A DNA stretch of 14,073 nt from Pseudobacteriovorax sp. (GTDB taxonomy: Bacteria; Bdellovibrionota_B; Oligoflexia; Oligoflexales; Oligoflexaceae): contig JBNKNM010000146.1 in the NCBI GenBank assembly GCA_050293845.1, positions 1 to 14,073 on the forward strand. Reading direction: 5' to 3'. How positions within the stretch are numbered: position 1 is the first letter of the stretch; each line of letters opens with the position of its first letter. Below are positions 9,001 to 14,073 of the stretch, piece by piece. Made by a program: the position numbers.

Positions 9001-12000
9001 TAGCGATGCAAACATCAAAAGCATCAGAAGCGCTACCGCTTAAACTCATATTAGCTACAGCAGGGATTGTGCATGGCCTGACTCCCCATCAACTCCTGCT
9101 CAACACTGCTTGGGTTGAGGGCCATGCTATCATTTAAAGCTAAACGGATTATGACATAATTGGCAAGTTTCATAGCGCGGACCAGCGTGGGGAGGGCTGA
9201 CAACACTTTGGGCATCTAAGAAGTGACAGCCAATGCAGTCCGTAGGTAGAGCCTGATAGTTTCCTTGGTTGTGACAGCTACTACAATCCGTCAAACGGTG
9301 GGCTCCCAAAAGTGGAAACTGGGTTAGATCATGGCTGAAAGTGGTTGAATGCCAAAAATTCTGGGTATGACAATCCTGACAAGGAGTGAGAAAACCATTA
9401 TGGGGATCGTCCTTAGCATGGCAAACCATGCAATCTTCACTGGCTCCCCGGAGCACTCTATCATCAATATGACATTGATCACAACCTAACAGCAAGTGAA
9501 CACCCACTAAAGTGAAGTCACGATGGAAATTATCAGCTTTTTCCCATCCAGCTTCCGTATGGCACTTGGTACAGCGCTGGCCGTTTGATCCTTTATGGGG
9601 ATCCTGATGACAAGTTTGGCAATTCTTCTTTTCCAGTTCTGGGAAACTGTAGAGTCCTTTTCTATTACGAGGACCTTGCCTAAATCGCTTGCGGGTTGGC
9701 TCATGACATTCGCGGCAAGCAACATCCCTATGCTTATAGCGCAATCTAAAGGAAGTTTGATTGTGATTAAAATCCTTACGTTTGGTCCAACGTGTGGTTA
9801 AATGACATTCACCGCAGGGTTTAGAATAAAATTTCCGGCTAAACTGATTACGGTGCTCGTTGTCGTGACAATTAGTACAGTAACCATTGCTTTCACCAGG
9901 GAAATTAAACTTATGAGCTACTTTCGGTGGATTAGTATCGAGCTTTCTATTAGTTTTAACATGGCATTTGAAGCAATCCTTCTTAATAGATGCATGTCGT
10001 CCGGTAAGTTTAAACTTAGTCAGATTGTGATCGAAAGGCTTACGAGTTACAAAATTCACCGTACTGTGACACTCGCGGCATGAAGTCATTCTAATGAATT
10101 CAGAAGAGAATTGCCCCCGATGTACATTCTTGTGGCAATTTTCACAATAGCCGGCATCAGCGAACTTAAATTTAAACTTGTGGGCCACCTTAGGCGGTTT
10201 GGTGGGTAGCTTCCTACTAGTTGGTACATGGCATTTGACACAGTTGCTGGCGAACTTTAAATGGGCCCCAGTAATTCTATAGTCCGTTGTATTGTGGTCA
10301 AAGGGCTTTCGGTTAAAAAAGTTAGTGGTCGTGTGACACTCGCCACAAGACTTTAGATTAAATTTGCGCGAAAACTGCTTTTTGTGAACACTTGTATGAC
10401 AATTAACACAGAAACCCTTATCAGCTTTGGGAAATTTATATTTCCTTTTACCATCAACCAGATGACAAGTCTGACAAGATTGATTCTTATGCTTTCCGGT
10501 TAAGGGGAAACGGGTATTGTCATGAAACTTGCGATCTCCCTCCAAAAATCCCCCAGTAGCCATTTTTTGCCAGCCGAGAGGTGTGTGACAGTTGGCACAT
10601 TTTACCCCTTTAAACCTTCTATGGAAGGCTTTTGAATGGGGGCTTTTGTGACAAGTTTCACAAGTTTTTGACGTTAATTCTTTAAAGAAATAGCGTCTTG
10701 GCTCGTTTCTTTGACCACGAGCCTCATCATTTCTAATGGTGGTATGGCAGTCAAAGCAATCATTCTTTTTATGCTTACCGATAATAGGAAAGCGCGTCTG
10801 GGTATCATGATTAAATCTGATGCGACTCTTCCAACCCAATTCATTATGGCATGAAGCACAATTCGCAAGTATGCCTACCTTTGCTGCCCGATGATTTCGG
10901 TAGCCATGGTGATCAGCATGGCAAGAACCACAGGTTTGATTCAACCCTGCCCACTGATAATAGGCAACACCGCGCCTGGCATTGCTGCCATTTTGTTTAT
11001 GGCAGTCGATACATTTATTACGAGCATGCTGTCCACGTAGTGGAAATGTGGTGACTTGGTGTTTAAATTGGGCAATCCGCCATTGCTCCTGCCCATGACA
11101 GCTATCACAATTGCCAACCCTAAATTTAGGTGAAAGTTTACTACCATGATGATCTGTATGACAAGTCAGGCACTTTCTGGTTTTTAATTCAGGGAATTGA
11201 TATTTTTCCGATCCACGCCCGCGAGGTGCATGACATTTATTACAGCTTTGCCTAGCGTGCTTTCCTATCAAGGCATAACCGGTTTCCTTAAAGTGATCAA
11301 ATTTTTTAGTGTTTTTCCATTCCGTGGTAGTGTGACACCGACTGCATTCAACCTTTGCATACTCACCAGTAAAAAAATGTATATCGTCGTCCTCATGACA
11401 GCCTCGACATGAAGGAGAAGTTCCAAAAAAGCGAATGCCTTCTTTACGAACAAGCTTAGAGCTCCTTGTTTCCTTATGACATTTCTCACACTTTAATCCA
11501 TCATGAGCCCCATCCAACGGAAAGCCAGTCCGTCTATGATCAAAGGATCTTTCATCAAAGCGTGTGGAATCGAAATCGCGTCCTCGATGGTCGCGATGGC
11601 ATGTAATACAGGTTTTACCACCCATTCTTCCGTGGAAAGATATTCTATTTTTAATCTGAACGCCAATTCCCTTGTGACATTTTATACAGCCGGTGATGGG
11701 AATTCCTCCACCAGGATCATGGCAGGTTAGGCAGTCTAAATGTTCTAAGCTTTCATGACCTGACATTAAAGGGCCAGGTGCTAAAAGCTTATTCATTAAA
11801 CCTTCGAATTTTTTTGCATTCCCTCCTTGAGCCCATAGGACATTACTAGGATCACTCAGAAGAAGGATAAATATGATGCTAAATATCTTCAAAATCAGGC
11901 ACCCTCCTACGGGTTGGAGAGGCTGATTCAGAGCCTATTTGATAGCCTATCATTAACATAAACGATGTCAACGATCTGTCCTGTGCATCGGATTTGGTGA

Positions 12001-14073
12001 AAGATGCAGCCCCTCTAAAATCATCCGAAAGGAAAAACGCAAACTCTACATTCAAAGTATTGGGATTTAATTCGTTGCCTGTCGCATATTTTTCTGTTTG
12101 TATTATATAACTACTAAATAGATTCCAATTCCTTTGAAAATAAGATGCTTGTAACACAATAAAGGTGTCGTCACTTAAAAATGCTTTGCGGATTCCATAT
12201 TTAAACCCTAGAGAAAGCCTTTTTCTTAAGTATCCGGTATACAACAGCCCTGCACTCACTTCATTGGAACGTAATCCATCGGCACTTCGGGTCGCACTTG
12301 ATAGATCACCATTTAATTGTAAATTTCTAGTATATCGGTAACGACCGTTTAACTTTACCGTCGTTAAGGTTGAAGGGTCAAGATCATCTCTAATATCTTT
12401 TTTTGTCCTATAGTCTTCCGCGGTAATTCTACTCAAAGAAGTCCGTATCCTGTATCGGCTTCGATAATAAGCATAAGAAAAATAACCACGACGTAGGCTT
12501 ATATTCGGAGCAAGATCAAGATTTGCGAAAGAACTTATGCGCTGAGTAAAACCCAAATTATATGTACCATAGTGGTAAAAATAAAATTTGTTAATAAATT
12601 CATTTAACTCGAAACTAGGGGCTTGAGCAATAGTATTTGTCAGATAGATACTCCGCATACGTTCGGAGTTCTTCGTTTCGTAAACAGTGTAGATACCACC
12701 CTGATTCCCATCGAACCCCCTGACCTCAGGCTGAATACTAGCTGGAGTGACAATGTCTTGGGGGGCAATACCAACAAAGCCGGCGATTCTTAAGTTGCGA
12801 CTATAACGATACCCGTATTCACCACCATCGTTGGCTAGAATCCCAGCCTCAGGAATAGACGACCTTCCAAAACTATAGAAAGTTCGATTGCTCTCCCATG
12901 GCCTTTCATAGGTTAACTCTCGCAACTGAAGAGTATTCTGGGCATCTAGTTGCAGAATTTCATAATCAACCTTGCCAAAGAAATCATATTTATCTCTAAT
13001 ATCTAACCGAATAAAATCCTCTCTACGATTAATTCTTTCATAATCCAAGTTTAATCGAGTAGAAACGATCTGCACATCATTGACTTCGCTTTGTTGATTT
13101 CCTGGAAAATCAATTTGGCTATTGATATACCCAGTTCTCACACTACCATTATACTCTGCACCTTGTGCTGTAGCTACATGCACTAATAATAGGACAAATA
13201 AAACAATATGAATAGATTGGTACCTGGGGTAAATCATATAACCTGCAAAAAATGACATTACAAAATATTTTAGCAGTTTTGGGTCCCCATTAACAACTAG
13301 CTAATTCTGAGGTTTCCAATTACCATACTTGTGGCATCTAACACAATCGTCAGTTGTTTGAGGGTGAGCTGTAGGTTTATCTAAGGAGTGACATGCTGTG
13401 CAAGAATTAAATGTGGAATGGCTTGCCCTAATTTGAGCCGCGCCAGCGCTGAGATCATCTGAAGCCTTTGGGCTTCTTGCCCCACACCCCCATAAGATAG
13501 TGGCAAAAATCCATGTAAAAACTAATACTTTCATCTATTACCCCGTTTTTACGGCTTCGCCGTGTTTGGTGTCAATTACAATGCCAAGGCTTTCGAGGAA
13601 CTTAAAAGGCAACTCCGCTCCAGCAAAAATAAACAAAAAATCATTTTGAAGTCTGAGCTTACGTCCTTCTTTTTCTACGATAATATATTCTTTTTGTACT
13701 TCTGTTACAGAAGTATTCCACGAAATAACAACTTGTTTTTTCTTTTCCATATCAAAAATTATATTTTGATTATCTTCATTACAACGATCTAGCTGTTCAC
13801 CGCGAACGAGCAAAAAAACTTTATTGCGTCTGCTTGGTTTGGCAAGATACTGGGCAGCTTCTACACCAGCATTGCCGCCCCCTACAACAGCAATCCATTT
13901 TTGTTTGTATTGATCCGGATCCAATAAATTGTAAGTAACCTTAGTTGATTCTTCATTAGGCACTCCCAGCTTTCGAGGACTTCCTCGAGCACCTAAGCAC
14001 ATCATTACCTTTTTAGCTGTAATAACGCCGGTCGATGTTTCAACATGGAAAACGCCGCTTTTTTTCTTTAAAT

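Follow-up and report, generated by a model that had tools for sequence, protein, structure and literature searches.

Genes at the locus

The window, which is the whole stretch of 14,073 nucleotides of Pseudobacteriovorax sp. DNA that was analyzed, carries four adjoining genes on its minus strand. These code for a 33-heme c-type cytochrome (9130..11892), an outer-membrane beta-barrel protein (11879..13237), a small lipoprotein with two heme motifs (13301..13534), and the 3' part of a membrane-anchored FAD/NAD(P)H oxidoreductase (13538..14073). The 5' part of the oxidoreductase gene was located with tblastn outside the window, on contig C64 of the same genome (820-2), and a gene for a cytochrome-b-like inner-membrane protein, recognized by its motifs, lies upstream (C64, 1774-914). 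The two contig ends share 9 nucleotides, and the oxidoreductase reading frame continues across them. The order of the five-gene cluster is membrane protein, oxidoreductase, lipoprotein, barrel and cytochrome. The first-pass annotation had described a porin-cytochrome pair; the pair is present, but its three other partners were overlooked. DNA contigs from two runs of one study, one of them perhaps the source, show zero letter differences, and no terminator-like site was found behind the cytochrome gene.

The 33-heme cytochrome

The cytochrome ORF begins with TTG and encodes 920 amino acids with 33 CxxCH motifs, exactly as first described. It has a Sec-type signal, as judged by eye, on which its periplasmic placement is based. 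Each of its 66 cysteines is part of a CxxCH motif, and the second-richest ORF in this 6.68-Mb genome has only 8 such motifs. The protein is composed of 11 three-heme modules. Among 46 homologs, exactly 33 histidines outside the motifs are conserved, each in at least 89% of the sequences, and there is no conserved methionine. These 33 conserved distal histidines for 33 hemes imply that the protein is an entirely bis-His wire. Together with the lack of a CxxCK motif in the cytochrome and of a conserved methionine, they suggest a wire rather than an enzyme. We rejected a multiheme enzyme because neither a free heme nor a CxxCK heme is present, and identity with HmcA or MtrC because scores fell far under the cut-offs.

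The cytochrome has no sequence match in the PDB. Its structural model (pLDDT 68, pTM 0.33) has a poor overall shape, such that length and threading are not readable from it, and fold searches with this model returned nothing significant (best match GSU1996, E 0.25; Z 2.3).

The outer-membrane barrel

The barrel ORF could start at 13258, and a second ATG is located at 13237, the end given in the first-pass annotation. The gene overlaps the start of the cytochrome gene by 14 bp and carries a Shine-Dalgarno-like AGGAGG (11903..11908, minus strand) 10 nucleotides before the cytochrome TTG. From this arrangement we infer that translation of the cytochrome is coupled to that of the barrel. A signal peptide was judged by eye. 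An AlphaFold2 model built from a 99-row alignment (pLDDT 93.2, pTM 0.87) has 22 strands, which run from residue 14 onward, with no plug and a short C-terminal tail. Neither the barrel nor any of the 99 aligned homologs belongs to a Pfam or NCBIfam family, and the barrel has no sequence match in the PDB. Thus, the earlier description of a family-less 22-strand barrel directly before the cytochrome gene is upheld.

Structurally, the model best matches Occ porins and 22-strand TonB-dependent barrels, the latter in their parts without the plug. TonB-dependent transporters carry an N-terminal plug inside the barrel, a feature missing from our model, and the alignments to them begin after the plugs of the targets. 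The best matches previously named were "ushers and porins"; here, ushers do not stand out specifically. Foldseek ranks OccAB4 and chitoporin best, with a TM-score of about 0.45, fewer strands and 8-12% identity. The same list includes FimD and PapC, but the model has no usher-like plug or chaperone domains. An ESM Atlas search returned unnamed clusters only. Used alone to search for loci, the barrel sequence recovered 0 of 202 candidates, and the barrel alignment is too variable for a pattern search. Prediction of a complex between the barrel and cytochrome residues 560-920 gave a score of 0.18 and a mark of 0.32, which we take as evidence in neither direction.

The lipoprotein, oxidoreductase and inner-membrane protein

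The lipoprotein has 77 amino acids, two CxxCH motifs and a lipobox-like LWG-C sequence recognized by eye. It is a short member of a family of lipoprotein cytochromes with 2-45 hemes, whose profile matches large Bdellovibrionales lipoproteins with 41-96 bits. The oxidoreductase combines a thioredoxin-reductase fold with a two-cluster Fe-S domain and matches the Pfam families Pyr_redox and Fer4.

The inner-membrane protein has 285 amino acids and carries two WX3HX13H motifs and an SGxxG motif, which are invariant or nearly so in 15 sequences. Invariant positions are H96/H110, H262/H276 and SGxxG. He et al. (PMC5566968) tied these motifs to two b hemes. A simple hydropathy scan places three segments over threshold, compared with the five helices expected for the porin-cytochrome cluster PCC3 discussed below.

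Distribution and gene linkage

The barrel occurs in 31 of 131 genomes of the class by single-protein search and in 32 by profile search, one of the latter being a weak match in a different cluster. It is present in 17 of 21 genomes of the family, the source genome being left out. The figures given earlier (33 of 131 genomes, 18 of 21 in the family) are close to this recount, which follows the barrel rather than the cytochrome from genome to genome, and differ from it slightly. The barrel and the membrane protein occur together in 29 of the 131 genomes, the barrel alone in three and the membrane protein alone in one, although kin among these genomes are not independent.

In 19 of 20 relative loci, the barrel, membrane protein and oxidoreductase are found together, and the large cytochrome follows the barrel in the 19 with DNA available. 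The diheme lipoprotein was found in 17 of the 20; it is missing from loci L043, L044 and L215. Among 80 loci retrieved with only the membrane protein as query, many of which end at contig ends, 63 have the barrel, 64 the oxidoreductase and 60 a cytochrome with at least 15 hemes. A multiheme gene lies directly behind every barrel with room for one (58 of 58; 52 established by script and 6 by reading), and four further barrels at locus edges fall outside this count.

As had been claimed, most Oligoflexaceae have the cluster, but its range extends beyond this family, across Bdellovibrionales, Bacteriovoracaceae and Pseudobdellovibrionaceae, and related modules are present in Bacteroidota and Acidobacteriota. 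Several Bdellovibrionales loci have genes resembling those for cytochrome c maturation, recognized by eye, between the membrane protein and the barrel. An Emticicia locus has an annotated ccsA gene in front, and its oxidoreductase adjoins the membrane protein. Cultured carriers include O. tunisiensis Shr3 (locus L060), and the cytochrome is also found in Pseudobacteriovorax antillogorgiicola (P0150). The points against an outward conduit of the kind considered below include the tiny outer partner, missing from three loci, and four paralogous 36-heme clusters with no membrane-protein gene within 18 kb.

Heme number is less uniform than the "exactly 33 CxxCH" first reported for 9 of 9 relatives. 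A single 33-heme gene is found in 8 of 13 Oligoflexaceae loci. Four others divide the 33 hemes between a 9-heme and a 24-heme gene (4 of 12 family loci), and the last is cut by a contig end. In seven loci outside Oligoflexaceae, the number is 24, 27 or 29, and the best 120 cytochrome homologs mostly have 30 (48), 33 (46) or 36 (14) motifs. A frameshift artefact was rejected as the origin of the split, which recurs in four genomes, with a signal peptide of its own and overlapping stop and start codons.

Relationship to PCC3

PCC3 is a porin-cytochrome c gene cluster predicted in 2017 (He, Barco, Emerson and Roden; excerpts of PMC5566968) and also treated by Hoover et al. in 2023 (PMC10734462). 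It is a predicted system only, and its function has so far been a prediction for every PCC3 (PMC12442390). Our references were not the ES-1 proteins but Burkholderiales clusters with published order and heme counts, which were entered through a Comamonadaceae contig matched by a published primer. Their order is membrane protein, 21-, 24- or 27-heme cytochrome, 10-62-heme cytochrome and porin.

A profile of the membrane protein leads to PCC3-ordered clusters in 26 of 401 Burkholderiales genomes, matching the proteins there with E values of 1e-21 to 1e-31 and with both motifs in 20 of 20. The adjacent cytochrome, with 21-27 hemes in total, is homologous to the 33-heme cytochrome in all 20 Burkholderiales loci read; 19 intact cases share 28-32% identity over about 600-800 columns (E 1e-54 to 1e-75). 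The cytochrome profile scores 15-21 bits per heme on the periplasmic type of PCC3 cytochrome versus mostly 3-7 on the extracellular type. The oxidoreductase adjoins the membrane protein in 19 of the 20 Burkholderiales loci, with 38-43% identity.

For the barrel, an HHalign comparison with nine PCC3-type porins gave 94.8% (E 5.5e-8, 320 columns) and a second gave 92.9%, with columns spanning 320-353. Control values were 1.8% for MtrB and at most 0.85% for candidate barrels from the source genome. In the reverse direction, a search of the ORFs of the source genome with the PCC3 porin profile missed the barrel, and the profile did not match single Emticicia or Bryobacterales barrels either. With the lipoprotein profile, each of the 18 PCC3 extracellular cytochromes reaches 23-37 bits, whereas periplasmic ones do not exceed 21 bits and unrelated controls do not exceed 15. 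A PCC3 two-heme-repeat profile gives the small lipoproteins 3-16 bits, which does not separate them from controls (up to 12.6), and gives one large lipoprotein 48 bits.

By these comparisons, the cluster is very probably akin to PCC3, with homologous cytochrome and membrane protein and a remotely homologous barrel. Thus, the proposal of a conduit of a new type is not borne out, and the cluster looks like a streamlined Bdellovibrionota variant of PCC3, here in aerobic bacteria that do not respire metals. Shared features are the membrane protein of about 300 amino acids with two WX3HX13H motifs and SGxxG, a periplasmic cytochrome that lengthens in three-heme steps, and, by remote homology only, the barrel. 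At 28 residues per heme (920/33), the cytochrome is also inside the PCC3 range of 22-39 given in the excerpts of PMC5566968.

There are also differences. PCC3 porins have 717-858 amino acids, compared with 420-493 here, where the N-terminal domains are missing. The wire is longer, with mostly 30-36 hemes versus 21-27, and 33 lies outside the PCC3 range. In place of the large extracellular cytochrome of PCC3, with at least 10 hemes, there is a lipoprotein with two hemes in the present cluster; across Oligoflexales it has two to four, and elsewhere in Bdellovibrionota up to 45. The barrel gene directly precedes that of the periplasmic cytochrome, unlike the PCC3 order of membrane protein, periplasmic cytochrome, extracellular cytochrome and porin. 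Finally, the flavoprotein gene is co-directional here but divergent in PCC3-type clusters, and the PCC3 descriptions in the excerpts of PMC5566968 and PMC10734462 list four genes with no mention of it.

The wire also ends differently. Its last three-heme module (residues 843-920; 9130..9366, minus strand), an extra one relative to the PCC3 periplasmic cytochrome, best matches the N-terminal module of PCC3 extracellular cytochromes. This module is top-scoring (46-62 bits) in all eight cytochromes tested from the family of the 33-heme protein, whereas in 17 PCC3 periplasmic cytochromes the last modules score 12-23 bits and internal modules up to 52. We infer that residues 843-920 are a candidate for the end that threads the barrel.

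Comparison with other porin-cytochrome systems

MtrCAB, MtoAB and PioAB share the general design of a plug-less barrel, a periplasmic multiheme wire and an outer cytochrome. However, the HHalign control indicates no barrel homology, and MtrB ranks only 33rd in the fold search with the barrel (Z 13.2, rmsd 7.5). The cytochrome scores 71 bits against the DmsE/MtrA family TIGR03508, for which the cut-off is 192, and has 33 hemes where that family is decaheme. The MtrB family model TIGR03509 has no match in the source genome; the same model is positive in 26 of 251 Burkholderiales genomes.

The Geobacter Pcc systems (OmbB/OmaB/OmcB and ExtABCD) likewise place smaller barrels beside multiheme cytochromes. 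The excerpts on them (Shi et al. 2014, PMC4245776) describe no HX13H protein or flavoprotein. An OmbB profile matched a porin encoded behind 24- and 49-heme genes in Burkholderiales (Arbour et al., PMC7399161), and a distant link between our barrel and OmbB-type porins is possible. PCC4 and barrel-less clusters share the membrane-protein motifs and a redox protein in the cluster, but in the excerpts of PMC5566968 PCC4 has 4-, 5- and 10-heme cytochromes, and the clusters of its Table S6 have 7-18 hemes, mostly with no porin.

In the literature searched, Oligoflexaceae are not known for extracellular electron transfer, in agreement with the first-pass annotation. Excerpts of two sources note MtrAB homologs in other Bdellovibrionota (PMC13200544) and predicted extracellular electron transfer proteins in Bacteriovoracia and Bdellovibrionia (bioRxiv 10.1101/2022.03.26.485925).

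Possible function of the cluster

The original reading of a porin-cytochrome conduit is still the best one and is strengthened by the full operon. The conduit probably crosses the outer membrane, and we lean toward a five-gene, PCC3-related system that runs outward, from NAD(P)H to the cell surface. The sequences provide the parts, motifs, conserved linkage and PCC3 homology from which the following steps are deduced. The membrane-anchored flavoprotein would oxidize NAD(P)H in the cytoplasm and draw off the electrons through FAD and two Fe-S clusters. The electrons would then cross the membrane by way of two b hemes that the inner-membrane protein binds with its HX13H pairs, in the manner of ferric-reductase/NOX-type domains. 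The 33 bis-His c hemes would serve as a non-catalytic wire and electron store across the periplasm, with the last three-heme module seated in the plug-less barrel. Electrons might exit at the surface either directly or via the small lipoprotein; possible acceptors include chelated metals, humics and Fe(III)/Mn oxides.

NAD(P)H is a strong electron donor, and this, together with a heterotrophic, aerobic lifestyle, suggests the outward direction. The cultured carrier is an aerobic heterotroph (PMC5154148), and the source genome has genes for aa3- and cbb3-type oxidases. In such organisms, the conduit might act as a surface reductase, or as a redox outlet when oxygen is low, rather than as main-line respiration.

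The role proposed for PCC3, iron oxidation, fits expression data poorly. In S. lithotrophicus ES-1, both PCC3 clusters are down-regulated on Fe(II) (PMC8788666), and one PCC3 extracellular subunit was undetected in proteomes (PMC11429942). These data say nothing positive about the real role of PCC3. The variant described here, with its bare barrel, one long wire, two-heme lipoprotein and flavoprotein in the same transcription direction, is stripped down to a design that points to outward flow as the general role of PCC3. It has been retained by most Oligoflexaceae and by many further Bdellovibrionota, which are not considered electroactive lineages, and cultured Oligoflexus tunisiensis makes the system testable. 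Confirmation would add common aerobic heterotrophs and predators to the bacteria with extracellular electron transfer and would turn the barrel family, which is missing from Pfam and NCBIfam, into a usable marker.

Alternative explanations

Plug-less barrels, ushers among them, serve as secretion pores. It is conceivable, albeit unlikely, that the 33 hemes are a periplasmic redox buffer charged by the inner module and that the barrel, instead of sheathing an electron path, is a channel through which the lipoprotein or the cytochrome is exported or assembled. The number of hemes exceeds what is needed to span the periplasm, for which 21-27 were judged enough (PMC10734462), and FimD and PapC appear among the Foldseek matches. 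Modules of membrane protein and small cytochrome with no barrel exist on a Methylophaga plasmid and in Table S6 of PMC5566968 (excerpts), indicating that the inner part is able to function with no link across the outer membrane. However, the barrel lacks usher-like plug and chaperone domains, appears coupled to the cytochrome, which it precedes in all 58 loci with room, and is kept where the lipoprotein is missing (L043, L044 and L215).

Inward flow would carry electrons from reduced metals, humics, conductive particles or other cells through the b hemes into the quinone pool and on to the oxidases. For PCC3 in iron oxidizers, this direction was first put forward by He et al., along with a cytochrome b active toward quinones (PMC5566968), and in Sideroxydans CL21 the membrane protein of one of the PCC3 copies increased during iron oxidation (PMC12442390). 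The source genome also offers, besides its aa3 and cbb3 oxidases, a cluster like that of alternative complex III, recognized by eye. Yet the constant NAD(P)H-type flavoprotein is left unexplained, because reduction of NAD(P)+ from Fe(II) is uphill. With the down-regulation of PCC3 on Fe(II) in ES-1 (PMC8788666) and the heterotrophy of the cultured carrier (PMC5154148), this makes inward flow rather improbable.

We give still less weight to a quinone-independent, NOX-like reductase spanning the whole envelope, in which the periplasmic wire of PCC3 is fused to the first module of its outer cytochrome and NAD(P)H is discharged onto whatever the cell contacts. A single polypeptide would then extend all the way from inner membrane to cell surface, passing through a minimal barrel, and Bdellovibrionota, many of which are predators, would discharge onto prey envelopes, metals or O2, the last yielding reactive oxygen.

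It is very improbable that the barrel is just a common porin for solutes or a pore for metal uptake, co-transcribed with a periplasmic redox protein of separate function: the substrate porins that match best, OccAB4 and chitoporin, reach a TM-score of only about 0.45 with fewer strands and 8-12% identity, whereas the only detectable remote relatives of the barrel sit in multiheme clusters of three phyla and the barrel tracks the membrane protein across the 131 genomes.

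The 33-heme cytochrome and its five-gene cluster

The window carries, at 9130-11892 on the minus strand, a gene for a 920-amino acid cytochrome whose 33 CxxCH motifs account for all 66 of its cysteines. The next-richest ORF in the whole genome has 8 such motifs. The start of the cytochrome gene, with AGGAGG 10 nucleotides upstream, overlaps by 14 bp the end of an ORF for an outer-membrane barrel (11879-13237/13258, minus strand, 452-459 amino acids). The motif count and this overlap bear out the first-pass annotation, which had placed a 33-CxxCH cytochrome directly behind a barrel gene. 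However, that annotation described the two as a pair, and the unit is made up of five genes. Upstream of the barrel is a gene for a 77-amino acid lipoprotein with two CxxCH motifs (13301-13534, minus strand), and next upstream is an FAD/NAD(P)H oxidoreductase gene whose 5′ part, on contig C64, codes for a membrane anchor and a two-cluster Fe-S domain. The ends of the two contigs overlap by 9 nucleotides, and the frame continues across. Farther along C64 lies the gene for a 285-amino acid, cytochrome-b-like membrane protein.

This barrel-cytochrome cluster is real and conserved. The barrel profile matches 32 of the 131 genomes of the phylum in our set, the membrane-protein profile matches 30, and both match 29. 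We picked 20 relative loci by their barrel matches, drawn from 20 of the other 30 genomes that had one. In 19 of them the large cytochrome comes after the barrel (the remaining locus is cut by a contig end), the membrane protein and oxidoreductase are found in 19, and the small lipoprotein in 17. All 19 oxidoreductases, from Oligoflexia, carry one CxxCxxCxxxC and one CxxHxxCxxxC motif. The latter, with His replacing one Cys, is also present in 19 of 19 Burkholderiales homologs as well as in the source genome (C64, 820-2), and could possibly serve as a marker and provide an unusual cluster ligand.

Four loci in genomes of one other family (L212-L215) hold a second copy composed of a 36-heme cytochrome, barrel and oxidoreductase, with the lipoprotein in three of the four. 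No membrane-protein gene occurs within 18 kb of these copies, which may share the membrane protein of the first. The source genome also has a stand-alone tetraheme lipoprotein (C192, 7193-7609) that is a paralog of the small lipoprotein, scoring 76 bits against the profile of the latter, on a contig carrying no barrel and no large cytochrome.

Heme number and ligation

Heme number is modular across relatives. The earlier statement that relatives have exactly 33 CxxCH motifs goes too far: among 13 loci of Oligoflexaceae, eight have a single 33-heme gene, one is truncated, and in four the hemes are divided between a 9-heme gene and a 24-heme gene behind it. In these split loci the 24-heme gene encodes a separate signal peptide, and its start overlaps the stop of the 9-heme gene. 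The 9+24 split is also seen in the loci L060 (Oligoflexus tunisiensis Shr3), L061 and L062. Other families have 24, 27, 29, 30 or 36 hemes, and the best 120 of 1,521 homologs include 48 with 30 motifs, 46 with 33 and 14 with 36. The cytochrome has 41 histidines outside the motifs. Exactly 33 of them are kept in 89% or more of 46 aligned sequences, an alignment without any conserved Met. Thus, every heme is probably bis-His ligated, which would suit a wire or a store rather than an enzyme.

The outer-membrane barrel

Neither the barrel nor any of its 99 aligned homologs has a Pfam, NCBIfam or PDB sequence match, and the AlphaFold2 model has 22 strands and no plug (pLDDT 93.2, pTM 0.87), in agreement with the description of a family-less barrel of about 22 strands. 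Ushers and porins had been named as its best matches. The model aligns best with the barrel portions of TonB-dependent transporters (Z 17.1, rmsd 4.5, 361 aligned) and with Occ porins, at identities of 7-12%, and not with ushers specifically. Another multiheme cluster (L217, contig C21 of a second genome; 17, 4, 2 and 6 hemes) adjoins a 417-amino acid protein with a weak match to the barrel profile (24.5 bits).

Relationship to PCC3 clusters

The membrane protein contains two WX3HX13H motifs and SGxxG, described in part of He et al. 2017 (PMC5566968) as the signature of PCC3 and PCC4 inner-membrane proteins. Its profile matches 26 of 401 sampled genomes of Burkholderiales, an order that entered the analysis through a Comamonadaceae contig. 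From 19 of the 26 we took 20 loci as a PCC3-type reference set. Every one of the 20 has, behind the membrane protein, a cytochrome of 21, 24 or 27 hemes (divided 12+9 in one) and behind that another multiheme cytochrome, with 10-62 hemes (truncated at 7 in one). Ten have a long ORF behind the cytochromes with a weak barrel-profile match (E 9e-6 to 0.34 among 2,193 ORFs), and in 19 a divergently transcribed gene encodes the same oxidoreductase. These clusters match the published PCC3 gene order and heme count, and our comparison rests on them rather than on proteins of Sideroxydans lithotrophicus ES-1.

Identity between the 33-heme protein and the 21-27-heme cytochromes is 28-32% across about 600-800 columns, with the N-terminal cap included. 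Against nine Burkholderiales porins, three of them cut C-terminally, the barrel profile reaches HHalign 94.8% over 320 columns (92.9% in a local rerun). The corresponding values are 1.8% with 14 MtrB sequences and no more than 0.85% with the ten best of 11 barrel candidates from the source genome. The reverse PCC3 porin profile failed to pick the barrel out of its own genome, and so this homology is remote. The "new type" of conduit claimed at first pass is therefore not upheld, because the cytochrome, the membrane protein and, remotely, the barrel are homologous to parts of PCC3-ordered clusters.

There are also clear departures. PCC3 porins have 717-858 amino acids, whereas the present barrels have 420-493 and lack the 300-400 front residues. 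The outer cytochrome is here a separate lipoprotein of 2-4 hemes, absent from three loci, whose kinship with PCC3 outer repeats is weak. In eight of eight proteins tested, the closest match to the N-terminal module of PCC3 extracellular cytochromes (n = 18) is the final three-heme module of the long cytochrome (46-62 bits). In the same test, last modules of PCC3 periplasmic cytochromes reach 12-23 bits, but some internal modules reach 52, which makes it suggestive only that the long cytochrome is a PCC3 wire fused to an outer-cytochrome module. Since two defining PCC3 features, the large extracellular cytochrome and the gene order, are absent, we file the cluster as a PCC3-related variant rather than a member.

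Proposed electron transfer

A porin-cytochrome conduit remains the best reading. Its parts and their conserved linkage are established, and we infer every transfer step, the threading of the cytochrome in the barrel and the direction. We lean modestly toward outward flow, in which electrons from NAD(P)H would enter through the FAD and Fe-S clusters of the oxidoreductase, pass next to two b hemes, and travel along the chain of bis-His hemes, reaching first the barrel and then the cell surface. This direction is suggested by the constant flavoprotein partner and by the hosts: the source genome encodes aa3- and cbb3-type oxidases and gave no MtrB match when searched, and a portion of PMC5154148 describes O. 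tunisiensis as an aerobic heterotroph.

It is rather unlikely that the cytochrome serves as a periplasmic capacitor and the barrel as an export pore. Slightly less probable still is inward electron uptake, as first proposed for PCC3; that cluster type is called functionally unverified in part of PMC12442390, and passages of PMC8788666 report its down-regulation on Fe(II) in ES-1. That the barrel is an unrelated porin seems very improbable beside so conserved a linkage.

Distribution beyond Oligoflexaceae

A search with the membrane-protein alignment gave 83 confirmed loci, and the best 80 of these partly overlap the 20 picked by barrel. Judged by title and score, 76 of the 80 belong to Bdellovibrionota-type or unclassified relatives, and the other four are one further Bacteriovoracaceae fragment, one Bryobacterales, one Krumholzibacteriia and one Planctomycetia. 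The barrel lies within reach in 63 of these 80, and 60 have a cytochrome with 15 or more hemes. In Bdellovibrionales and Bacteriovoracaceae, homologous lipoproteins of 5-45 hemes replace the small lipoprotein, and putative cytochrome c maturation genes, recognized by eye, often lie inside the clusters.

A plasmid of Emticicia oligotrophica (Bacteroidota; NC_018749.1, 78197-89995) bears a complete related module, with ccsA, genes for the membrane protein and oxidoreductase, two cytochromes of 23 and 40 hemes, and a 538-amino acid protein that matches the barrel profile (HHalign 95%). This location hints that the module can move, and the species offers a second cultured test system for a related module. 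Short cytochromes on Sphingomonadaceae, Methylophaga and Legionella plasmids (H4-H32) match the N-terminal 200-250 residues of the 33-heme protein. The Methylophaga example adjoins a membrane-protein homolog and an Fe-S protein, with no barrel there.

The literature searched, which covers few subscription papers, yielded no report of PCC3 in Bdellovibrio, and the cluster is not described in portions of PMC11495043, PMC11492766, PMC13200544 or bioRxiv 10.1101/2022.03.26.485925. The last two report other predicted EET genes in Bdellovibrionota, and OmbB-type complexes are treated in parts of PMC7399161 and PMC4245776.

Other genes in the source genome

Two further clusters, on C132 (502-4626) and C434, combine DsrO/NrfC-like Fe-S and DsrP/NrfD-like membrane subunits with tetraheme genes, and the former also carries an octaheme HAO/HDH-like gene. 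These are possibly anaerobic respiratory modules in an apparent aerobe. Within the window, a 280-amino acid ORF (5345-6187, minus strand) lies between genes for a family-5 solute-binding protein and a hybrid sensor kinase. It has no Pfam or NCBIfam match, and contains two "A..E.LER" stretches that may be reminiscent of YcaO-like proteins.
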